A stretch of 37,318 nucleotides of DNA from a virus. The translations under genes were made by a program, and so were the position numbers. Below are positions 2,002-37,318 of the stretch, in pieces; within the stretch, counting starts at the first letter, position 1, and every line of letters begins with the position of its first letter. Under the pieces are notes generated by a model. It ran no database searches. It had not been told where the DNA came from and saw nothing but the letters and a program-made list of their open reading frames with translations. Where the stretch lies: positions 1-37,318 of the IMG/VR virus record IMGVR_UViG_3300028584_000261; one strand, given 5' to 3'.

Positions 2002-2153
2002 GCCGCCGCAGCAGTTCCAGCTCGCTCGAGATCCTGCTCGGCCTTCTCGGGGGCGCCCTGGTGGCGATCGGGGCTTTCATCTGGCGCGTTTACACCGCGA
2101 AGCCTAACTATCCGCAAGCGCAAGGGAATGACGACCATGACAACCGCGATTGA
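1998..2153 (+). CDS. Small single-pass membrane protein (51 aa)
   Basis: ATGA overlap with the preceding stop. Hydrophobic helix LEILLGLLGGALVAIGAFIW. G/C-ending codons. Confidence 0.45.
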   Translation: MSRRSSSSSLEILLGLLGGALVAIGAFIWRVYTAKPNYPQAQGNDDHDNRD

Positions 2154-3060
2154 TCTTTTCGCCGGCCTCGGCGGCTGGTCGACCGGCGCGCGCATGGCGG
2201 GCGTCGACGTCCTATGGGCGGCAAACCACTGGCCGGACGCTGTGCAGTGGCACAGTGAGAACCACCCCGGGGCGATTCACGTCTGCCAGGACTTGCACCA
2301 GGCCAACTGGTCGCAGGTTCCGGCGCATGATCTGCTCCTCGCCTCGCCCTGCTGCCAGGGCCACAGCCGCGCGCGGGGAAAGAGCTCCGGCAATCCGCAA
2401 CACGACTCCTCGAGGTCGACGGCGTGGGCGGTCGTTTCGGCGATCGAGTTCCACCGGCCGGAGGCCGCACTCGTCGAGAACGTGCGCGAATTCCTGAACT
2501 GGGCGCTATACCCTGCCTGGACGGTCGCCCTCGAGGCGCTCGGCTACTCGATCTCGCCGCACCTGGTCGACTGCGCCGACCTCGGCGTGCCGCAGAACCG
2601 CGAGCGCCTGTTCCTGGTACTGACGCGCAGCCGCGCGCCCCTGCGCCTGCAGCTCCCGCGCCTCGAGCACGTTCCGGCGACTGCCTTCCTCGACTTCACC
2701 GCCGGCAACTGGTCGCAGATCCACAAGCCCGGGCGCTCCCCGGCCACCCTGCGCCGCGTCGCCAACGGTCGCCAGGCCTTCGGCGATCGATTCGTCATGC
2801 CGTATTACGGTAAGGGCTCAGGCACCACCGGGCGAAGCCTCGAGCGCCCGATCGGCACGCTGACCACCCGCGACCGCTGGGCACTGGTCGACGGCGAACG
2901 CATGCGAATGCTGACCGCCGACGAGGTGTTGCTCGGGCAGTCGTTCCCGGCCGGTACCAAGCGACCACCGCAACACGCCCTAACCGTACACCTGGCCGGC
3001 AATGCCGTGCCGCCCAAAGCGGGCGCGGCTGTCATCCGCGCCCTACAAGCCGCAGCCTGA
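2128..3060 (+). CDS. DNA (cytosine-5)-methyltransferase, orphan
   Basis: Motif I DLFAGLGG, motif IV SPCCQGHS (catalytic Cys), motif VI ENV, motif VIII QNRERLF, motif X GNAVPP. No adjacent endonuclease-like ORF. The start could be 2128 or 2137. Confidence 0.9.
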   Translation: MTTMTTAIDLFAGLGGWSTGARMAGVDVLWAANHWPDAVQWHSENHPGAIHVCQDLHQANWSQVPAHDLLLASPCCQGHSRARGKSSGNPQHDSSRSTAWAVVSAIEFHRPEAALVENVREFLNWALYPAWTVALEALGYSISPHLVDCADLGVPQNRERLFLVLTRSRAPLRLQLPRLEHVPATAFLDFTAGNWSQIHKPGRSPATLRRVANGRQAFGDRFVMPYYGKGSGTTGRSLERPIGTLTTRDRWALVDGERMRMLTADEVLLGQSFPAGTKRPPQHALTVHLAGNAVPPKAGAAVIRALQAAA

Positions 3061-27692: not shown

Positions 27693-28006
27693 CGCAGCGC
27701 CCTCACCCATCCAGCACGGGCGCCCTCGATCGAGCGATAGCCCGCATCGGAGAAGCCGCACGAGCAATACGCGCCCCACAGGCCGTCGCGCTGACGGAAA
27801 CGCGGCAACGGGGCCGCCTTGCAGCCGTGCCGAGGCATATCCGAGTCATTGATCAGGTTCCAGGAAGCCAGCGCGCGCGACTCTGACGTCGTCAGCTCGC
27901 CGCGATGCTTGCATCCAGCGCAGGCATAGACCCTCACATCACTGCTCGGGTCGAGGCGGCGCGCAGGAATGGCGCCGCATTGCGAGCAGGCAAGGGCGGC
28001 CATCAC
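27689..28006 (-). CDS. Lar-family-like zinc-ribbon protein (possible restriction alleviation), 105 aa
   Basis: CSQCG...YACAGC...ALASWN matches the Lar signature CxxCG...CxxC...A..WN. A degenerate second copy follows (YCSCG...ARAGW). Confidence 0.4.
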   Translation of the reverse strand: MMAALACSQCGAIPARRLDPSSDVRVYACAGCKHRGELTTSESRALASWNLINDSDMPRHGCKAAPLPRFRQRDGLWGAYCSCGFSDAGYRSIEGARAGWVRALR

Positions 28007-28854
28007 AGCCCCCTATCGAGCAAAACGAAGCCATAGCCGCGCATGGCCTTGCAAAGTGCCGTCAGCGCATCGCGATCGAGCTCTAGCAGAGTCTCGCGTA
28101 GCGCCTGCCAGCGGCCGGCCCAATGCTTGTCCCAATTTGCCACGCTGACACCGAGCAACTGCTGCAGGCGGGACGGCTGATGCAGCACCTTGCCGCAGTT
28201 CGCGGCCCGCTTCACGTCTTGAACGGCCAGGTGCGCCAGGCTGCGGACCTTCTGCAGCGTCTTCGCCTGGATCTTGCCGAGCGTTGGCTCGTGGCGCGCC
28301 CACAGGGCCGCAACAGCGCCCGCCTCGTCGTCCCACAGCTTCGAGTCGGCGTAGGCGTAGCGAATCCAGTGCTGCAGCTCAGGCGGCAGGCCGGCAACGG
28401 CGCGGACGACGTGAGCGTCCTGAAAGGCGAGCGGACCGAGGGGAATCGAGGCCTTCTTTTTCGGGCGGGTCTCGCTGGCGATCACGCGGGTGGTTCCTTT
28501 CGCCAGGCTGGCGACGTATGCGGCGGGGAGGCGCCCGACGTGATCACCATCCTCGGCAGGGCACTCGCGCAGCGCCTCGAGGTGCGCCGGGAAGGCCTCG
28601 CGGGTGTTTTCGGTCGTGTACTGGCCGACGAACTTGCCGTCGTGCTCGCGGAAGTGCTGCGCGCCCAGGAAGGCGCCGAGGACGAGATCACGCATGACGG
28701 CGCGGTCGTGCTCGAACACCTCGGGCAAGGGGCGTGGCTTGATCTTGGCCGACGGCTTGGCCGGGCTTTCGGTGCGGTCCAGGACATAGAGCGCACCGGA
28801 AACAGGGCAGGCAGACGAAGCAACGGGACGGCTAGACAGACTCAGCGTCTCCAT
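28003..28854 (-). CDS. Putative late antiterminator (phage 82 Q-like C-terminal domain), 283 aa
   Basis: The C-terminal region HWIRYAYAD ... LLGVSVANWDKHWAGRW parallels 82-type Q (..L.VEYL ... LLGISVSQFK.YV...W). It is the last large gene of the early operon, just upstream of the late promoter/terminators. Confidence 0.45.
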   Translation of the reverse strand: METLSLSSRPVASSACPVSGALYVLDRTESPAKPSAKIKPRPLPEVFEHDRAVMRDLVLGAFLGAQHFREHDGKFVGQYTTENTREAFPAHLEALRECPAEDGDHVGRLPAAYVASLAKGTTRVIASETRPKKKASIPLGPLAFQDAHVVRAVAGLPPELQHWIRYAYADSKLWDDEAGAVAALWARHEPTLGKIQAKTLQKVRSLAHLAVQDVKRAANCGKVLHQPSRLQQLLGVSVANWDKHWAGRWQALRETLLELDRDALTALCKAMRGYGFVLLDRGL

Positions 28855-29388: not shown

Positions 29389-29717
29389 TCTGCGCCCTCC
29401 TTTTTCCGTGACGGAAAGGCGAGTAACGGCCTGTAATCGTGACAGTCACGCCTAATCTGATCGGCCACATTGCGGGCCACTAGGGTGACGAACTCGGCCC
29501 ACTGCTCGAAACCCTCGGTCTGGCAAATCAGTTCGAGGTCGTCGCGCGTGCCCGGGTATACGTCGAACTTGTAGGGGAGGGACTGCGCGCGCACCAGGCT
29601 CGCGCCTTCGGCAGTGCGCTTGCGTTCTTGCCGCCTGCGGGCGAGCTCGCGCTGCCGCTCGGCAGGACCCAGCGGCTTGCCGTCTGGACCCATAATCACG
29701 GTCGCATGCCTACCCAT
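29385..29717 (-). CDS. Hypothetical protein with basic N-terminal segment (110 aa)
   Basis: Start set at MGRHATV (8-nt overlap with the upstream stop). Confidence 0.5.
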   Translation of the reverse strand: MGRHATVIMGPDGKPLGPAERQRELARRRQERKRTAEGASLVRAQSLPYKFDVYPGTRDDLELICQTEGFEQWAEFVTLVARNVADQIRRDCHDYRPLLAFPSRKKEGAE

Positions 29718-30321
29718 GGGCCACCGCCTTCGCGAAACGCTCCAGACGGGCCAGATCCGGCAGCGATCGGCCAGTACCAACGGCGACCGACGCGAGCTCG
29801 CTGATCATGCTCAGAACGGCGTCGAGGCCTTCGCGCAGCATCAGGTCGACCGCATCCGGGTCGTCGCGGAGCGAATAGCTCCCGTCATGGGCCGGGGTCG
29901 CGGCAGCGACAAAGGTTCCGAACTCCTGCAGCACCTTGGCCAGGTCGGACGGAACGGACGATGTGCGGGCCTGATAGGCGATGCGAGGAGCGCGAATATC
30001 AAGGCCGCCGACGAGCTCGATGCATTCACGACGAACGTCGTCAGCGATGCGAGCCGGTAGGCAACCGATCCAGGTCCATTTCCATTCGAGAGGGAACGAG
30101 CTCGTGCCGTTGAAGATGCGGCCGAGGCGTGTCGCCCAGGCTTTTCGCTCTTTCAGATAAGCGGCGCCGTCTGACTCCTCGAGGGCGACCTCGATCAGCC
30201 CCTCGGCGATCAGTGTGGGGGCTAGCAGCTCGTGCGCGAACCGCTCGACGTTCCACTCCGATTGCATGAACCATTGGTTCGTGTGCCGCAGCACGATTTC
30301 CCGTTCCGTCCTACCCTGCAT
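29710..30321 (-). CDS. First early-operon protein, divergent from cI (203 aa, no obvious HTH; weak resemblance to 186 CII/CP76-type regulators)
   Basis: GGGAGA RBS. Occupies the cro position. Only vague pattern similarity to CP76-type regulators (LGRIFNG..FPLEW, VLSMISELASVAV). Confidence 0.5.
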   Translation of the reverse strand: MQGRTEREIVLRHTNQWFMQSEWNVERFAHELLAPTLIAEGLIEVALEESDGAAYLKERKAWATRLGRIFNGTSSFPLEWKWTWIGCLPARIADDVRRECIELVGGLDIRAPRIAYQARTSSVPSDLAKVLQEFGTFVAAATPAHDGSYSLRDDPDAVDLMLREGLDAVLSMISELASVAVGTGRSLPDLARLERFAKAVAHG

Positions 30322-30367: not shown

Positions 30368-30414
30368 TTCGGGATTCCGAATAAAAAGATCAACTAAAAT
30401 TCAGGATACCGAGT

Positions 30415-30432
30415 GGAATCCTTATCGATTCC
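30415..30432. promoter_or_regulatory. Candidate operator palindrome upstream of cI
   Basis: GGAATC-CTTATC-GATTCC. The half-site GATTCCGAA recurs at 30373-30381. Confidence 0.4.
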
Positions 30433-30468: not shown

Positions 30469-31134
30469 ATGAAAGATATTCAGCACATCGGGCCGGCCAT
30501 AAAGGCGCGGCGGCAGGCGCGCGGATGGAGCCAGTCGGCGCTATGCGAGGCAGCAGGGAACGCGATCAATACGAGCACGCTATCGACGACCGAGAACGGC
30601 ATGAGCCTGCCCAACGTGATGGCCGCTTATGCGGTGGCGAAAGCGCTTGGCACTACCGTCGAGGCGCTGATCGAGGAAGCGACCAATCCGGGCGCCGTTC
30701 GGAACCCCACAGAAACCGCCGAAAGGGTACCCGTCGTACCGTGGCACATGGCGGCCGAATGGAAGCTAAACCCCGATATTACGCGGCTTCCAGCGAATAC
30801 CCCGTGGGTTTTACCGCCTGAGAATTCGACGCCCGGCATGTTCGCCCTGGTCGTGCCTGATGACACCATGCATTCACCCAGCGGCTTGGCGTTTCCAGCC
30901 GGTTCGACCATCTTCGTGAACCCTCGGCGCGTGGCCGATGCGAACGACCTGGTCGTCGGCTATACGCACAAGGCCGAGGAGCTGACGTTTAAAAGGTTGA
31001 TCCAGGACGGAGCACAGCGGTACCTTCGACCGCTAAACCCTCAATTCCCGATGGTCTCGATCGACGGTAATTTCCAGGTTGTAGGGATAGTGACGGGCAT
31101 GCGAATGATCATCGAAAAGGGGGTCATTCGATAA
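30469..31134 (+). CDS. cI: Lambda CI-like repressor (XRE HTH plus S24 LexA-type C-terminal domain)
   Basis: The C-terminal domain aligns by eye with lambda CI (ELTFKRLIQDGAQRYLRPLNPQFPMVSIDGNFQVVGIV vs [38 protein letters not shown]). GAGAGG RBS. Divergent from the early operon. Confidence 0.9.
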   Translation: MKDIQHIGPAIKARRQARGWSQSALCEAAGNAINTSTLSTTENGMSLPNVMAAYAVAKALGTTVEALIEEATNPGAVRNPTETAERVPVVPWHMAAEWKLNPDITRLPANTPWVLPPENSTPGMFALVVPDDTMHSPSGLAFPAGSTIFVNPRRVADANDLVVGYTHKAEELTFKRLIQDGAQRYLRPLNPQFPMVSIDGNFQVVGIVTGMRMIIEKGVIR

Positions 31135-31224
31135 ACGGAAAAGTCAAGGTTTCGGTATTCTGAATAAATGACGTAGACTGCGGCCACCCCGCAGTTAATA
31201 GCTTTGCAAGGCACCAAAGAAAAA

Positions 31225-31398: not shown

Positions 31399-31442
31399 AA
31401 TGTTCTTTTGTGCTTTTGCGTTTTTGCGCAAAGGAACAAAAT
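31399..31442. promoter_or_regulatory. Repeat island D at the repA start (iteron/operator-like)
   Basis: CTTTTGTGC 31405-31413, CTTTTGCGT 31413-31421, TTTTTGCGC 31421-31429 (8-bp phase). Inverted GAACAAAAT at 31434-31442 overlaps the repA ATG. The 13-mer AATGTTCTTTTGT is shared with island C. Confidence 0.55.
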
Positions 31443-34400
31443 GCACAATAGGAATGACAACGCGAGCGCCCTGGCCCGTTTCTACGAGGAACGGTTCCGC
31501 TCTGACCCTTATGCCCTGGTCGATTATTTCGAGCACGACATCGCCGCCGCTGCGGCAGACGTCGGCATTAAATGGTCGGCGCTGCAACGCGACATCACTT
31601 GGGATGGCCAAAAGACTCGCCCCAAAGGCGCGGCATCGGTCACTGACAAGGCCCACCGGGGCAAGGTCATGGCGTGGGCCTCGATCAAGCGGGCCGACGA
31701 GTTCGAGTATCCCTTCGTCAACTTCACGAACAACAATCCGGCCGTCGGCAAATCGAGCTGGTCAGGCTTCGCGGCGCTGCTCGAGCTTTTCCGCGAGCAG
31801 GGCGGCACGGCTACCAGCAAGAAGCATGACGAGTGGCTGAAAAAGCAAGAAGCCGAGCGCGCCACGCGCGAGGCGGCACGCAAGGCCGCCGAGGAGAAGG
31901 CCCGCAAGGCCGAGGCCCTGGTCCATGGCGAGCGCCTGGCCTACGAGTCGGCCTGGCACTGCGGCGGACGCCATGCCTACCAATACGAAGCCGGCGGCAA
32001 GATCCGCGATGGCTTCGTCGAGCTGATCAGCGACGAGGACGGATCGGCCCCCTACCTGGTCGCCAAAGGCGTCAGCGCGGTTGTGTCACGCTTTCAAATG
32101 AAGCGTATGCGTGACGGTAACGGTTATTTTACAGCCGTTCCCCTGTACAACATCGACGGCCTGTTCCTCGGCCTGCAACGCCTCTACGCCAACTTCAAGC
32201 TCCAGGGCACCGGCGTGAAGATGGACGGAGCGCACTGCATCATCGGCGAGCTCGAGTCGGCCGAACTGGTCTATGCCGCCGAAGGCTTCGCCACCGGCGC
32301 AAGCGTCTGGCTAGCAGAGCACGAGGCCGGAAATAACGTCGCGGTGATCGTGACGTTCAACGTCGACAACCTGAAAAAGGTCGTCGCCGCTTACGCCAAG
32401 CGCTGCCCGAACCTGCAGATCCGCAACGCGGTCGATAATGACCAATGGAAGCCGGTCGCAGGTAACGCCGGGATGCTGGCCGCCCTCGAGCTCGCGCGCG
32501 ACTGCAACTCGCCGGCCCTGGTGCCCAATTTCGACGCCCTCGGCGCCGAGGCGATCGCCAAGTTCAAGGCCGACAAGAAAGGCCCTACCGACTGGAACGA
32601 CTACCACCTCGCTTTCGGCTTGAAGGCCATGGCAAAGGCCATGCGCGCCCGTTCTACCGTGTTCAAGCCTTACAAAGACTGGTTCGCCTACACCCTGCAG
32701 CGCCTCCAGTTCTCCGGCGTAACCGCCGAGAAGGCCGCGCGCCAGGCGATCAACGCGGGCATGTTGCTGGTTCCGATCAAGTATTCGGGCGAGGCCGTTC
32801 TCAAACTGGTGATGGAGCATATCCCGGAAGGCCCGAAGGTCGACCGGCCGAAGCTGCGCTCGTTCTGCCAGTGGCTCGCAAAGCAGAAGATCACCCAAGC
32901 CGCCGAGCTGCGTTCGTTCTCGCCGGCCACCCTGGCTAAGGGGCACATTCAGCACCTACGCATCGAGGGCGTGCGCCAGGCGCATGGCAACGTCGAGATC
33001 CCCGCGCACCTGGTTCACCTGATCGAGTCGATCGAGGGCTGCATCATCCTGCGCGCGCCCATGGGCAGCGGCAAAACCGAGAAGGTCATCGCGCCACTGA
33101 TCCGCGACGCCGCGAAGGGCGCCTATGTTGCCCACCGCGTCTCGCTGCTCGACGACGCGGCGGCACGTTTGAATCGGGTCACTGACAGCCAGGGCAAGGC
33201 CGCACGCAACCGCGACGGCAGCTATAAAACCGACGGCCTGGTCCACCACTATAAGCAAGTTATGGCCGCCTGGATGCGCGACGTCTCGCACCTCGCCTGC
33301 TGCGTCAACTCGATTACCGCCCCAAAGTTCTACAACGCCGACGAGCGTTCCTGGTTCACCACCGTGGACACCCTTTGCATCGACGAGGCCGGCCAGGTCA
33401 TCAGCCACGTCGCCTCCGGCCCCGTCGAGGGTCGCGTCCGCGTTTACGACGCCCTGATCGACGCCGTGCGCGACGCGAAGCGCGTGCTGCTGTGCGACGC
33501 CGACGCGAACGACAACGTCGTCGAGTTCTGCGAGCTCGCGCGCCCTGGCGAGAAAATCACCATCATCGAAGTGACCGGCAGCGCCGAGCACATCCGCGTC
33601 GACCACTCTGACGACGAAACCGTCTGGCAGGTTGCCCTCGACTGGATCTCGGCAGGCAAACGCGTCCTGATGGCGAACGACTCGGTCGAGAGCTGCAAAA
33701 AGCTCGCGGCCGTGATCGAGGAACGCCAGGAAGCGGGCGAGATCAAGCCTGTTCGGATGCTGGTCGTCCACCAGGGCAACAAAGGCGAGCCAGAGGTCGC
33801 CGCGTTCCTGCGCGACCCCGACGGCGAGGCCGTGAAATATGACGTCCTGATCTACTCGCCGGCCATCAGCTCCGGCGTGTCGATGACCTTCGGCGGCTCC
33901 GCGCACTTTGACCATCACGTCGGCCTATTCAGCGGCCAGACCGTCAGCCCCTCCGATGCGATCCAGATGCTTCGACGCGACCGGACAGCCCGTCACTACC
34001 TGGTCGGCCTCGGCCACGCGTCAGCGCAGCGCCAGACCGACAGCGAGGCACTTTATCGCGGGATGCTGCAGGCCGACGAGCAGACGTTCGGCTTCGAGGA
34101 AGGCGAGGGCGAGGTCCGCTTCGTTCGCAAGAAAACCGCCTTCGACATCACCTACCTGGCCAGCACCACCAGCGAGAACCGCGCGCGGAACGATTTCGCG
34201 AACAATTTCCTGCTGATGCTGATCAGCGATGGCTACCAGGTGCATCGCGCCAACCTTGACGACCCGGAGCGCACCAAGGAATCGCGGGCAAACCGCGAGC
34301 TCGGCGCCGTCCTGGTGTTCGAAAAGCGCATGGATCTGATCAACAGCGTCGAGACCCCGGACGACGAGACGTTCGCACGCCTGAATCGCCAGGAGGTGCG

Positions 34401-35295
34401 CAGCGAGCGCGAGAGCGCCCAGGTCGACCGCTACCACATGGCCAATCAACTCGGCGTCGACGAGCCGACCCCGGACGACGTAGCGTTCTATGACGACCGA
34501 GGCATCAGCCGCGTCGTCGCTATGGAGCTGCTGCAGTCGAGCGAGGAGCAAGCCCAGGCCTACGACCAGGCGCAACGCAAAGCGCGCGTCGTGCTGACTC
34601 AGCACCGCTACAAGTCGGCGGCCCGCGCGTTTCTGGTCAAGACCTTCGAAACGCTTGGCCTGGACCGCTTCACGGGCGAGGGATCCTTCACCGTCGACCA
34701 ATGCCGCCAGATCCTCGCAGAGATCCGCGCGGATCAAGCGAGCCTCGACCTTTACAACGCCCTCAAGCTGGGGCGCCTGTTGCCCTCGCTGACGGCCAAG
34801 GCCTGCGCGACGACGGTCGTCAAATCAATCATCGAGCGCCTCGGCGTCAGCGTGCATAAGCGCAAGACGAACGGCCGCAATGTTTTCGAGATCGATGCCG
34901 ATACCTGGCAGGTCATCATGGCCTACGTCGAGCAGCGCGCGGCCATTGGCGTTCACTCCCTGGCCACACACGAGACGGCGGCCCCCTACGAGCCGAAAAC
35001 CCTCGAGCAGCCTGCAGGCGAAGCCCCAGCCCAGCAGGGCGCCCTCGAGCGCGACAGGGACACTTTGCAGGGAGAGGTTAAAGACTCCGAAGAAAAGTAT
35101 CCCTTGAGCCTTGCGGAAAAAATCTACGCGGTCGCTGTTCGCTGTTCAAAGCCCCTCGGTATCCCGTTGGCGCAGGTTGTGGGGGCGTTTCGACGGGACA
35201 TCCTCGAGGACTGGGTAAGACCAGGCGCCGACGAACGGAGAATCGGGTTTGAACTCGAGTACGTGGCGCGGCTGATGCAAAAACCCGCGCTGTGA
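31441..35295 (+). CDS. repA: Replication protein RepA (primase/TOPRIM plus helicase), N15 RepA-like, 1284 aa
   Basis: TOPRIM-like AEGFATGASVW...VDNDQW, Walker A APMGSGKTEKV, Walker B LCIDEAGQV. Its size and its position between cI and the protelomerase match N15-type phages. Start set at MHNRND (AAGGA RBS) rather than 31408. Confidence 0.85.
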   Translation: MHNRNDNASALARFYEERFRSDPYALVDYFEHDIAAAAADVGIKWSALQRDITWDGQKTRPKGAASVTDKAHRGKVMAWASIKRADEFEYPFVNFTNNNPAVGKSSWSGFAALLELFREQGGTATSKKHDEWLKKQEAERATREAARKAAEEKARKAEALVHGERLAYESAWHCGGRHAYQYEAGGKIRDGFVELISDEDGSAPYLVAKGVSAVVSRFQMKRMRDGNGYFTAVPLYNIDGLFLGLQRLYANFKLQGTGVKMDGAHCIIGELESAELVYAAEGFATGASVWLAEHEAGNNVAVIVTFNVDNLKKVVAAYAKRCPNLQIRNAVDNDQWKPVAGNAGMLAALELARDCNSPALVPNFDALGAEAIAKFKADKKGPTDWNDYHLAFGLKAMAKAMRARSTVFKPYKDWFAYTLQRLQFSGVTAEKAARQAINAGMLLVPIKYSGEAVLKLVMEHIPEGPKVDRPKLRSFCQWLAKQKITQAAELRSFSPATLAKGHIQHLRIEGVRQAHGNVEIPAHLVHLIESIEGCIILRAPMGSGKTEKVIAPLIRDAAKGAYVAHRVSLLDDAAARLNRVTDSQGKAARNRDGSYKTDGLVHHYKQVMAAWMRDVSHLACCVNSITAPKFYNADERSWFTTVDTLCIDEAGQVISHVASGPVEGRVRVYDALIDAVRDAKRVLLCDADANDNVVEFCELARPGEKITIIEVTGSAEHIRVDHSDDETVWQVALDWISAGKRVLMANDSVESCKKLAAVIEERQEAGEIKPVRMLVVHQGNKGEPEVAAFLRDPDGEAVKYDVLIYSPAISSGVSMTFGGSAHFDHHVGLFSGQTVSPSDAIQMLRRDRTARHYLVGLGHASAQRQTDSEALYRGMLQADEQTFGFEEGEGEVRFVRKKTAFDITYLASTTSENRARNDFANNFLLMLISDGYQVHRANLDDPERTKESRANRELGAVLVFEKRMDLINSVETPDDETFARLNRQEVRSERESAQVDRYHMANQLGVDEPTPDDVAFYDDRGISRVVAMELLQSSEEQAQAYDQAQRKARVVLTQHRYKSAARAFLVKTFETLGLDRFTGEGSFTVDQCRQILAEIRADQASLDLYNALKLGRLLPSLTAKACATTVVKSIIERLGVSVHKRKTNGRNVFEIDADTWQVIMAYVEQRAAIGVHSLATHETAAPYEPKTLEQPAGEAPAQQGALERDRDTLQGEVKDSEEKYPLSLAEKIYAVAVRCSKPLGIPLAQVVGAFRRDILEDWVRPGADERRIGFELEYVARLMQKPAL

Positions 35296-35315
35296 TACTG
35301 TATGCATAACCAGCA
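35296..35315. promoter_or_regulatory. LexA (SOS) box-like operator
   Basis: TACTGTATGCATAACCAGCA: CTG-N10-CAG, 15/20 matches to TACTGTATATATATACAGTA. Overlaps a possible -10 (GATACT 35294-35299). Confidence 0.45.
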
Positions 35316-35352
35316 CGGCCATTTGAAATTAGCGAGCCAAGGAGTAGGAAAC

Positions 35353-35607
35353 GTGCCAATTCTCGACATGATGGACAACACAAGCGCGGGTATCCGCAGT
35401 GCCTTGGCGATCAGCCAAATGCTCGGGTTAAGCGCTCACCAGCTCACCCAGGAAGAGCTAGCCGAAGGCCTGGCCGTGCTGCGCGAGAAGCTGCAGCAGG
35501 TCGAGCAGTTGCACGAGGCCGCCTACTCCGTTGCGGCTCAAAAAGAAATGCCGGGGCAAGCCCCGGCATCTTTTCACCTCGCCAGCGTCAAGACGCTGAC
35601 CCGATAG
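35353..35607 (+). CDS. Orphan small helical protein (84 aa) in the repA-telN slot; candidate antirepressor
   Basis: AAGGAG (35339-35344) lies 8 nt before a GTG. G/C-ending codon bias. No recognisable domain. The ORF-track version starts at 35302 without an SD. Confidence 0.5.
   Translation: MPILDMMDNTSAGIRSALAISQMLGLSAHQLTQEELAEGLAVLREKLQQVEQLHEAAYSVAAQKEMPGQAPASFHLASVKTLTR
35540..35575. terminator. Bidirectional terminator between convergent smORF and telN
   Basis: 9-bp stem ATGCCGGGG-CAAG-CCCCGGCAT, flanked by AAAAAGAA and CTTTTC. Lies inside the 3' part of the smORF. Confidence 0.7.
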
Positions 35608-37150
35608 CCTTCTCGTAGACCTTGTGCATCGCGGCCATACGATCGCCGTCGACGACCGTGGCCAAGTCAACACCGTTGACGCGGGCCACGGCCTGCCACT
35701 GACCATCCTCGAGCTGGTGAACGGTCAGATGCGGTTTAGCCTTGGCCACCTCTTTCGGAACCGGCGCCGCGACCTCGGCGATGCCACGGTTCGGAATGGC
35801 CAACGCCTCGCCCGCGATCTCTAGATATTCCTTGATGTTGGGCCGGTAGCTGCCGACGTTGGTCTGTATCGCCTTTTGTGAGATCCGCGCCTCCGGCGCG
35901 GCTTTGACCGTTTCCTTAACCCATTGGTGGATCTTGTGCAGCGACGAGCTCGCCTTTATCCGCTCGTGCCCGTTGAGGGACTCCAGCGCCTCGAGGCGGC
36001 TTGCCCACTTGCCCGAAACCTCGGCCACTGGCCCGGACGGCTTTGTGTAGTCGAGCTTAAACGCCTTGTAGCTTTCCTGCGTACTCATGTCCTCGTGGCC
36101 GAGCATCGCCTGCCAAAACACGGTTTCGTTGACCTTTTTCCACTTCGGATCGCGCGCATAGTGCAGCTCGAAAACGGCCCGCGCCCATATCTTGCGGCTG
36201 TCCTTGAACACGCGGCGCGGGTCGTTGAATACGCGCTTTGTCAGTTGGTTCAGGTTGCTATGCACCCGATTGTTCACCGCGACGTTATCCATGCCCTGCA
36301 GCTCCTGGACCTCGGGCAGATCCCGCAGCGCCTTGATCGAAGCGAGCACCAGGTCAGCGGAAACGAGGGTATAGATCCGATAGCTGTCGGAGTAATCGAC
36401 GCCCTCGCGGCGCTTGGCCTGGCCGGCGAATTCGAGCTCGAACTCGCCCGCCTTCTTGAACCGGCCCAGCTTGAGCACCTCGATTTCGCGCCGGCCGGTC
36501 GCCAGGGCGATGCCGAGGGTCAGATGCGAGAAGTAGGGCGAGACGGTGCCGTCGCCGCGCAGTTGCTGCGCCGACAGCAGTTCGTTGATCGTGGCCATCA
36601 GCCAATGAAAATTTATCTCGACCGAGTTCGTCGCCTGGACCTCGAGGCGCTCGACCGCCTCGGACGCGAGCTCGGCTTTCGTGGCGGCTGGAAGGGTCAG
36701 ATGCCGCATGATCTCGTGGTCGAGCTTGAGCGTGCGGATAGCCTCGTAGGCGTCGTCGTCGCGAGCCCTGCGAACCTCGGTCAATAGGTCGCGGTGCGCG
36801 AATCGCAGATCCTTGATGTCGGCGTGATCGAGCATCGCCTGCAGCGCCTCGGCCCACTGAGGATGCTTGCGGGCGATGCGCCCGACGGACTCCTCGAGCG
36901 CGTGATGCCGCCAGTTCTGCGCGGTGACCGCGTTGCGGATGATGGTCAGATAACGGCGGTAGCTGGCCGGCGCGAGCTTGTCCTCGTCCTTCCGGCGGCG
37001 ATCCTCGTACAGACCGTTTTTGATGCGATCGGCGAGCCGAGCCAGGCGCTTCGTTTTGTCGCCGCGGCTCAGTTGCACGTCGCCATCGATAGCGCGAACG
37101 CCGTCCAGCAATGTGCGAGTTACGTCCTCTAGATCAACCTTCCTGCCCAT
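35588..37150 (-). CDS. telN: Protelomerase (telomere resolvase, TelN/TelK family), 520 aa
   Basis: Tyrosine-recombinase-like catalytic core (ALATGRREIEV box, GHEDMSTQESYKAF with candidate catalytic Tyr). Adjacent to the terminal palindrome. AAGGAGG RBS 7 nt before the ATG at 37150. Confidence 0.85.
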   Translation of the reverse strand: MGRKVDLEDVTRTLLDGVRAIDGDVQLSRGDKTKRLARLADRIKNGLYEDRRRKDEDKLAPASYRRYLTIIRNAVTAQNWRHHALEESVGRIARKHPQWAEALQAMLDHADIKDLRFAHRDLLTEVRRARDDDAYEAIRTLKLDHEIMRHLTLPAATKAELASEAVERLEVQATNSVEINFHWLMATINELLSAQQLRGDGTVSPYFSHLTLGIALATGRREIEVLKLGRFKKAGEFELEFAGQAKRREGVDYSDSYRIYTLVSADLVLASIKALRDLPEVQELQGMDNVAVNNRVHSNLNQLTKRVFNDPRRVFKDSRKIWARAVFELHYARDPKWKKVNETVFWQAMLGHEDMSTQESYKAFKLDYTKPSGPVAEVSGKWASRLEALESLNGHERIKASSSLHKIHQWVKETVKAAPEARISQKAIQTNVGSYRPNIKEYLEIAGEALAIPNRGIAEVAAPVPKEVAKAKPHLTVHQLEDGQWQAVARVNGVDLATVVDGDRMAAMHKVYEKAIGSAS

Positions 37151-37167
37151 CTTCGTGCCTCCTTTGG

Positions 37168-37297
37168 CATACACCGTTAAGCATAGCGGCAATTCTACAG
37201 CCTGCATTCATACACCGCAACGCATTTATCATGCAACATACACCTTTGCGCAAAGTACATAAATGCGTCAAGGTGTATATATGTGCAAAGGTGTATG
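37168..37297. repeat. Subtelomeric octamer array overlapping the telN leader/promoter
   Basis: CATACACC at 37168-37175, 37209-37216 and 37237-37244 (+). GGTGTATA/GGTGTATG at 37272-37279 and 37290-37297 (-). Confidence 0.8.
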
Positions 37298-37318
37298 CAC
37301 CCTATGCGCCTTATATAC
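37282..37318. repeat. Right terminal inverted repeat (telR half)
   Basis: TGTGCAAAGGTGTATGCACCCTATGCGCCTTATATAC is the exact reverse complement of 1-37. The joined ends give a 74-bp palindrome with a TATATAC|GTATATA core. Confidence 0.9.

Follow-up and report, generated by a model that had tools for sequence, protein, structure and literature searches.

A cI-type repressor with altered autocleavage residues and a candidate LexA-controlled antirepressor gene in a linear-plasmid prophage

The stretch of DNA analyzed here (the window) comprises the 37,318 nucleotides (nt) of the IMG/VR virus record IMGVR_UViG_3300028584_000261, positions 1 to 37,318, and the gene under study encodes a cI-type prophage repressor. 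The order of genes around cI is a Q-like antiterminator, a DksA-like protein and a CII-like regulator on the minus strand, followed by cI, the replication gene repA and a small open reading frame (ORF) of 84 amino acids on the plus strand and the protelomerase gene telN on the minus strand, which matches the order in the phages VP882 and phiHAP-1. A reading of the window from its letters alone (the sequence-only reading) had described cI as a lambda-like repressor with two altered self-cleavage determinants and had predicted that it is inactivated by a route other than classical autocleavage. The observation was confirmed by the comparisons described below, which also support and extend the interpretation at the level of sequence and predicted structure. 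The features of the repressor gene are as follows.

30469 to 31134, plus strand: cI-type prophage repressor of 221 amino acids, with an HTH_3 domain and a degenerate Peptidase_S24 domain
30499 to 30663, plus strand: HTH_3 DNA-binding domain, residues 11-65 (Pfam PF01381, E 4.3e-9)
30751 to 30756, plus strand: Ala95-Ala96 (GCG GCC) at the Ala-Gly scissile position of VP882 cI (A91-G92) and of lambda cI
30784 to 31092, plus strand: C-terminal S24-like domain (residues 106-208), for which a loss of catalysis is predicted (PF00717, E 1.5e-12, above the curated cut-off)
30865 to 30867, plus strand: Thr133 (ACC), aligned with the nucleophilic Ser (lambda S149, VP882 S130)
30991 to 30993, plus strand: Lys175 (AAA), aligned with the general-base Lys (lambda K192, VP882 K172)

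The lambda-CI-like C-terminal domain, originally aligned by eye, was recovered by profile, sequence and structure comparison. In addition to the Pfam match, lambda cI chains were the best sequence relatives of the window cI among PDB chains (phmmer, E about 1e-13). In a Foldseek comparison, the structures that best matched the AlphaFold2 model of cI (predicted local distance difference test score, pLDDT, of 77) were those of the lambda repressor and LexA (3bdn, 8gmu, 2hnf and 1f39). The C-terminal domain of cI has the S24, or LexA-signal peptidase, fold by all of these comparisons.

Formal alignment to the S24 family (PF00717) and to the cI proteins of VP882 and lambda left the assignment of the catalytic columns in place. 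The closest characterized relative is VP882 cI (36% identity), whose residues are numbered here from its second Met (A91-G92, S130 and K172). The cleavage site aligned without gaps between two Trp anchors (VPVLSWVQAGLW in VP882 and VPVVPWHMAAEW in the window cI), and this alignment and the codons place Ala95-Ala96 at the scissile bond, as had been proposed. The gapped HMMER alignment to lambda did not reproduce that pair and placed Ala96-Glu97 on lambda Ala111-Gly112, one residue away. The shift is immaterial because there is no Gly there either, and the Gly at P1' is missing from the window cI under both alignments. The other two positions aligned as the sequence-only reading had them: 'VPDDTM' of the window cI falls on 'VEGNSM' of lambda (Ser149) and 'TFKRL' falls on 'TFKKL' (Lys192). 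The general-base Lys is kept, and the nucleophilic Ser of the G-[DN]-S-M motif is replaced by Thr133 in the sequence 'DDTMH'.

The consequence of such changes can be judged from VP882 cI, which loses RecA-dependent autoproteolysis upon any one of the substitutions S130A, K172A and G92D (bioRxiv 10.1101/2019.12.16.877910). The window cI, when aligned to the essential residues of VP882, is therefore naturally substituted at two of three experimentally essential positions. An arrangement in which a different Ser and an Ala-Gly or Cys-Gly pair occupy the catalytic positions was looked for and was not found, and the inter-domain linker of the window cI contains neither an Ala-Gly nor a Cys-Gly scissile bond. 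The Ala-Gly dipeptides that remain in cI, residues 29-30 in the helix-turn-helix (HTH) domain and residues 144-145, which belong to the conserved core of the S24 fold ('FPxG'), were rejected as scissile bonds, since neither is in the linker. Ser136 and Ser138 were rejected as replacement nucleophiles because they are not at the active-site position and are not conserved.

The region of the former cleavage site also differs in its predicted structure. In LexA and lambda cI the cleavage-site region is an extended strand or loop. Residues 92-100 of the window cI (WHMAAEWKL, 30742-30768) were modeled by AlphaFold as a helix, with a block mean pLDDT of 89.

None of 50,697 phage records was matched in a megablast search with 12 kb of the window, and relatives were therefore sought through their proteins. 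Scans of viral and genome contigs gave about 100 related loci, only 6 of them on genome contigs, the viral contigs being far richer. The census comprised 49 distinct (non-redundant) cI sequences from loci that also contained repA and telN. Two of these sequences were canonical and 47 were non-canonical, the latter from Pseudomonas-type and phiHAP-1-type telomere phages, and the counts that follow refer to the non-canonical set. The nucleophile column contained Ser in 21 sequences, Thr in 16, Leu in 5, Gly in 4 and Ala in 1. Lys was present at the general-base column in 39 sequences, Arg in 7 and Ser in 1, with Arg occurring in the more distant relatives. The P1-P1' pair was AA in 30 sequences and AV, AS, AH, AT, AD, AL, AE, VV, YH, HE or LN in others; Gly at P1' was found in none of the 47. 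Ala-Gly displaced by one residue (Ala-Ala-Gly) was detected in two sequences, both with Thr at the nucleophile column. Many other positions of the C-terminal domain were invariant in the relatives, for example NPQFP, YLR and FK+L, and the domain therefore still appears to be under selection and in use, but not for catalysis.

The observed pattern is that of a pseudo-enzyme. Catalytic loss appears to extend across the clade, with the peptidase site in decay, and Thr133 appears to be one state of a drifting column rather than a conserved alternative nucleophile. Since this column drifts among Ser, Thr, Leu, Gly and Ala and P1' is never Gly, Thr is unlikely to be a working substitute for Ser. Variants of LexA, cI or signal peptidase with Thr in place of Ser (S119T, S149T and S90T) were looked for and were not found in the literature searched. 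On the residues observed at the aligned positions, it is very probable that cI has lost self-cleavage.

The gap between the stop codons of repA (35295) and telN (35588) holds the small ORF and no other gene. The features of this region are as follows.

31441 to 35295, plus strand: repA, a primase-helicase type replication protein of 1284 amino acids, with its start taken from the gene calls of relatives
35291 to 35299, plus strand: extended -10-like element TGTGATACT, read by eye and conserved in relatives, which extends across the repA stop codon into the box and covers its first two bases
35298 to 35313, plus strand: putative LexA (SOS) box CTGTATGCATAACCAG, of the form CTG-N10-CAG, 3 nt past the repA stop codon
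35353 to 35607, plus strand: small ORF of 84 amino acids with a GTG start and AGGAG 8 nt upstream, facing telN, a candidate gene for an SOS-induced antirepressor
35546 to 35571, minus strand: telN terminator, a GC-rich hairpin and T-run inside the small ORF, in which it encodes the 'PGQAPA' motif
35588 to 37207, minus strand: telN, protelomerase (PF16684, ResT-TelK_cat), convergent with repA and the small ORF

The window was scanned for LexA boxes as CTGT-N8-ACAG with one mismatch or fewer, and the box downstream of repA was then followed through the related loci. An AT-rich CTG-N10-CAG box no more than 160 nt from the repA stop codon was detected in 45 of the 47 non-canonical loci, and box and small ORF were both present in 45 of the 47. 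The offset of the box from the repA stop codon ranged from -7 to +107 nt, and the box was always upstream of the small ORF. Away from this position, the motif was present about once per 20 kb in about 570 kb of DNA from the first set of related loci, mostly with G+C-rich spacers. Some relatives have consensus-grade boxes (e.g., CTGTATAAAAATACAG and CTGTATAATTATACAG). When the intergenic DNA of 13 sequences was aligned (56% mean identity), the CTG and CAG arms accounted for six of the eight invariant columns; only the arms of the box were invariant, and its spacer and flanks drifted. In the relatives a GATACT, AATACT or TATACT hexamer is located just upstream of the box and overlaps it, and a TTGACC-like -35 element is present at the correct spacing in the phiHAP-1 group. 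VP882 and its near-twin L106, in which cI is canonical, have no box and contain a 1.1-kb vqmA-qtip module in its place, whereas the repA-telN gap of most loci with a decayed cI is about 0.3 kb. The conservation and placement of the box make it highly likely that host LexA controls the small ORF. Direct control of the lytic promoter by LexA, as in CTX-phi or GIL01, was considered and rejected because the intergenic region between cI and the CII-like gene contains no LexA-like box.

By its conservation, the small ORF appears to be a real gene. It was also predicted by public gene callers (as 85 amino acids), and in 25 copies that have diverged to as little as 12-20% identity, the frame, the start context with its GGAGG ribosome-binding site and a core of about 65 residues that aligns without gaps are all conserved. 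All copies in databases are annotated as 'hypothetical protein', mostly from P. aeruginosa. The AlphaFold2 model is a two-helix hairpin (residues 2-30 and 33-64, pLDDT >90) with a disordered tail (residues 67-84). Scans of 16 small-ORF sequences against Pfam and PHROG gave nothing consistent, and a Foldseek search of the model against BFVD gave no match below E 0.38, a null result that is unsurprising for a helical hairpin. The 3' ends of the small ORF and telN overlap by 20 nt, and PGQAPA is the most conserved peptide motif of the small ORF. Because this motif coincides with the telN terminator hairpin, it is probably conserved at the level of DNA.

The place and orientation of the small ORF are those of Qtip, the proven cI antirepressor of VP882. 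Comparison of a profile of 25 small ORFs with Qtip gave a weak signal (hhalign P 0.014, a score that none of 40 shuffled controls reached), and in a search of 24,375 ORFs of the related loci with the small-ORF profile (hmmsearch) Qtip scored only E 4.1. When the search was confined to 59 ORFs located in the long repA-telN gaps of four other phages, the best matches were ORFs of the loci L113 (E 3.6e-4), VP882 (Qtip, E 0.0099, rank 2 of 59) and L108 (E 0.61), and these top three matches were the three telN-proximal, plus-strand small ORFs. These comparisons suggest that the small ORF and Qtip may be distant homologs. The more distant telomere phages L113 (at about 1754-2009) and L108 have repA-telN gaps of 1.1-1.8 kb without a LexA box and keep a telN-proximal small ORF. 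The small ORFs of these two loci may be transcription-factor-controlled versions of the same antirepressor.

We consider it fairly probable that an uncleavable cI and a LexA-controlled, 84-amino-acid antirepressor, encoded 4 kb from cI, deliver the DNA damage signal indirectly. According to this proposal, the S24 domain of cI would be a pseudo-peptidase, most likely serving oligomerization only, and cI would not cleave itself on RecA filaments. Host LexA would bind the box at 35298-35313 and thereby cover the -10-like element and the start region of a putative small promoter located directly after repA, both of which the box overlaps. DNA damage would activate RecA, LexA would cleave itself and the helical-hairpin protein encoded at 35353-35607 would be made. 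Binding of this protein to cI would then derepress the divergent lytic operon of the CII-like regulator and the Q-like antiterminator. That the small ORF acts as the cI antirepressor is the more uncertain step, which we regard as moderately likely from its position and co-occurrence. The earlier prediction of a repressor that is non-inducible or slow by the classical route, and hence subject to an antirepressor or another inactivation mechanism, is supported. The antirepressor now has a concrete candidate, a small ORF behind a LexA box that is present in 45 of 47 non-canonical loci and missing where cI is canonical. 'Non-inducible' appears to be the wrong reading, as SOS induction is probably retained and routed via host LexA.

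Several observations weigh against the proposal. The box scan gave 5 matches in the window and 7.8 were expected by chance, and the right arm of the window box is CCAG rather than ACAG. In a scan of 35150-35700 for consensus promoters, no full sigma-70 match was detected ahead of the small ORF. Searches with the small ORF gave no match in Pfam or PHROG or at the level of structure. Its resemblance to Qtip is slight, and an E value of 0.01 was reached only in the position-restricted search. The box is missing from L109 and L113, although both are non-canonical; these two loci have long repA-telN gaps, which probably hold transcription-factor modules. The contrast between loci with a box and those with a canonical cI is clean, but it is not phylogenetically independent and not strong statistically because the canonical cI sequences form a single lineage. 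Lastly, Lys175 is invariant in the near clade (18 members, at least 58% identity), and Ser or Thr is kept at the nucleophile column in most members of the census and in all members of the near clade. Residual or slow chemistry is thus possible since Lys175 and a hydroxyl residue are mostly kept.

The alternative that survives best shares the loss of cleavage and the LexA control of the small protein and gives that protein another role. It could be a modulator of RecA or of cell division, or its transcript could act as an antisense RNA to the 3' end of telN, and cI would be inactivated otherwise, by a host protease or another phage product. The lack of a family match would be in keeping with such a role, and the transcript of the small ORF would run convergently into the terminator and 3' end of telN. 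The LexA box of Gifsy adjoins a dinI homolog, in a transcription unit that encodes the antirepressor among other products (PMC3121763). However, neither a second candidate antirepressor nor another suitably located LexA box was found in the window, and the small ORF is located exactly in the slot of the VP882 qtip and N15 ant genes. It also ranks with Qtip in the positional profile search, and its presence tracks a non-canonical cI. We consider this alternative unlikely, although it deserves more weight than those that follow.

It is very improbable that Thr133 works as a slower nucleophile with Lys175, with cI cutting itself at Ala95-Ala96 or nearby on RecA filaments and the small protein being an accessory. 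The intact S24 fold, the invariant Lys175 and the hydroxyl residue in 18 of 18 members of the near clade would all be consistent with a residual activity. However, sister sub-clades with the same box and small ORF have Ala, Gly or Leu in the nucleophile column, and Lys is replaced by Arg in several relatives. The P1' Gly is missing throughout the non-canonical cI sequences, and G92D alone is sufficient to eliminate cleavage of VP882 cI. The literature searched did not describe an S24 or S26 peptidase with Thr as its nucleophile. A prophage that is unresponsive to DNA damage, in which CTG-N10-CAG is kept for a reason other than LexA, such as a signal for repA transcription or replication, would agree with a motif that abuts the repA stop codon and a count of box motifs in the window that is not above chance, but is the least probable alternative because only the LexA-contact arms are invariant, several relatives have near-perfect consensus boxes and the box stays upstream of the small ORF as its offset from repA varies.

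Several known systems can be compared with the window, among them VP882 (Silpe and Bassler; bioRxiv 10.1101/2019.12.16.877910; PMC10432266). The VP882 repressor likewise has HTH and S24 domains, the genes follow the order Q, CII-like, cI, repA, small ORF and telN, and a protein of about 80 amino acids is encoded convergently beside telN. In contrast to the window, VP882 cI has the Ala-Gly, Ser and Lys residues and undergoes RecA-dependent cleavage, and Qtip, which contacts the HTH domain, is driven by the quorum-sensing factor VqmA-phage and not by LexA. The repA-telN gap of the window has no transcription factor gene and is about 0.3 kb long, compared to 1.1 kb in VP882. Of the features that define transcription factor-small ORF modules (PMC10432266), the window has the small ORF between convergent repA and telN and lacks the adjacent, divergent, SOS-independent transcription factor.

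Coliphage N15, the best-known telomere phage, has an SOS-dependent antirepressor, with ant genes annotated between repA and telN, and a CB repressor whose S24-like C-terminal domain has lost the catalytic signature. CB is reported to be non-proteolytic and under antirepression (PMC10432266). It differs from the window cI (24% identity) in having lost all three determinants, including the Lys, and by this comparison seems to represent the end state of S24 decay. N15 Ant (gene 30) is much larger and is encoded in the multi-gene immA region, whereas the window has a single ORF of 84 amino acids, and the two proteins have no similarity.

Coliphage 186 (Tum) and the Gifsy prophages of Salmonella (GfoA, GfhA) combine an uncleavable repressor with a LexA box before a small antirepressor gene outside the immunity region, so that the SOS signal arrives via cleavage of host LexA (PMC3121763). 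The same regulatory logic is predicted from sequence for the window. The repressors of Gifsy (about 136 amino acids) lack a C-terminal domain, whereas the window cI keeps the full S24 fold in decayed form, and the antirepressors of Gifsy and 186 have no sequence relation to the small ORF. In phiHAP-1 of Halomonas (NC_010342), the ORF37 repressor lacks Ala-Gly and has Arg in place of Lys. A LexA box, CTGTATACTTGAACAG, is located 6 nt past the repA stop codon, and ORF35, a 'hypothetical protein' of 95 amino acids and the positional counterpart of the small ORF, faces telN. The phiHAP-1 cI is only about 31% identical to that of the window, and ORF35 is recognizably related to the small ORF only in the N-terminal helix. 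No functional annotation of ORF35 or of its box was found, as far as checked. Silpe et al. (2023; PMC10432266) set aside linear plasmid-like phages with non-proteolytic repressors, and their list of 274 loci includes phiHAP-1 and a Pseudomonas monteilii plasmid.

The conceptual gain over these systems is modest, because the mechanism of an uncleavable repressor with a LexA-controlled antirepressor is well established in N15, 186 and Gifsy (PMC3121763; PMC10432266). The window differs from them in the graded loss of catalytic residues within a full S24 fold, a candidate family of unannotated antirepressors of about 84 amino acids, and the apparent location of this candidate in a slot that holds transcription-factor-plus-small-ORF modules in relatives with cleavable repressors. 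A search of a large protein database gave 21 full-length homologs of cI, and those with a name are called 'LexA family protein [Pseudomonas]'. Annotation as 'LexA family protein' or 'LexA repressor', or an S24 match taken to mean 'autoproteolytic', would mis-predict prophage induction. The small-ORF family, including phiHAP-1 ORF35, is a candidate SOS trigger for widespread telomere phages of Pseudomonas and Halomonas. The mis-annotation at the level of single residues, the clade-wide decay intermediates and the Qtip-like candidate are useful and directly testable.

A tentative extension of the favored mechanism, which we regard as possible but doubtful, is that the 84-amino-acid protein and Qtip are homologous and that Hapunavirus-like telomere phages share one fixed antirepressor slot beside telN whose sensory input was swapped in evolution. 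If so, the Pseudomonas and phiHAP-1 lineages would feed the slot through a LexA box, VP882 and similar phages would do so through a transcription factor, for quorum sensing or another input, and SOS-wired and quorum-wired induction modules would be variants of one slot. An SOS-wired slot would make the S24 site of cI redundant, with residue-by-residue decay proceeding from Gly to Ser and then to Lys. The relatives would then document, in natural intermediates, how a repressor that cleaves itself turns into a pseudo-peptidase.

The whole 37.3-kb window is the complete genome of a Pseudomonas prophage that belongs to the linear-plasmid ('telomere') phages and, among these, to the Hapunavirus-like type of phiHAP-1 and VP882. 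The ends are exact reverse complements and represent the two halves of a telomere palindrome, which argues for a complete linear plasmid prophage; joining them gives a palindrome of about 74 bp. The Hapunavirus-like hallmarks, namely a protelomerase, a large RepA, ParA and the 37-nt exact terminal inverted repeat, are all present, and terminase and lysis genes are also encoded in the window. The remaining features are as follows.

1 to 37, no strand: left half of the telomere, the exact reverse complement of 37282-37318 (37 nt)
28003 to 28854, minus strand: Q-like antiterminator (PHROG 304, E 6e-40; PF06323 in relatives)
29710 to 30321, minus strand: CII-like regulator, first gene of the divergent (lytic) operon (PHROG 4834, E 4e-44)
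30368 to 30417, no strand: two operator-like palindromes, TTCGGGATTCCGAA (30368-30385) and TTCAGGATACCGAG (30400-30417), between cI and the CII-like gene, presumed binding sites
31151 to 31168, no strand: third operator-like palindrome, TTCGGTATTCTGAATAAA, between cI and repA
37282 to 37318, no strand: right half of the telomere, pairing with 1-37

The palindromes share the pattern TTCGGnATnCCGAA, with two copies in the intergenic region between cI and the CII-like gene and one between cI and repA. The location of the latter copy suggests that cI also controls repA and replication, as an operator for CB is annotated before the replication gene of N15. The CII-like protein (203 amino acids) occupies the place expected of Cro, divergent from cI, and no small Cro-like ORF was seen. 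Near the left telomere, the gene for ParA (374-1075) and a small ParB-like ORF (1072-1368) precede an ORF on the plus strand (2128-3060, 310 amino acids) that by eye resembles a DNA cytosine-5 methyltransferase. Two public contigs of 77 kb with a nearly identical repressor, L052 (13123-16483) and L055 (13123-16586), contain two telN copies head to head. This arrangement is that of inverted dimers of the genome of about 38 kb, which probably arose by assembly read-through of a hairpin telomere or represent a replication intermediate.

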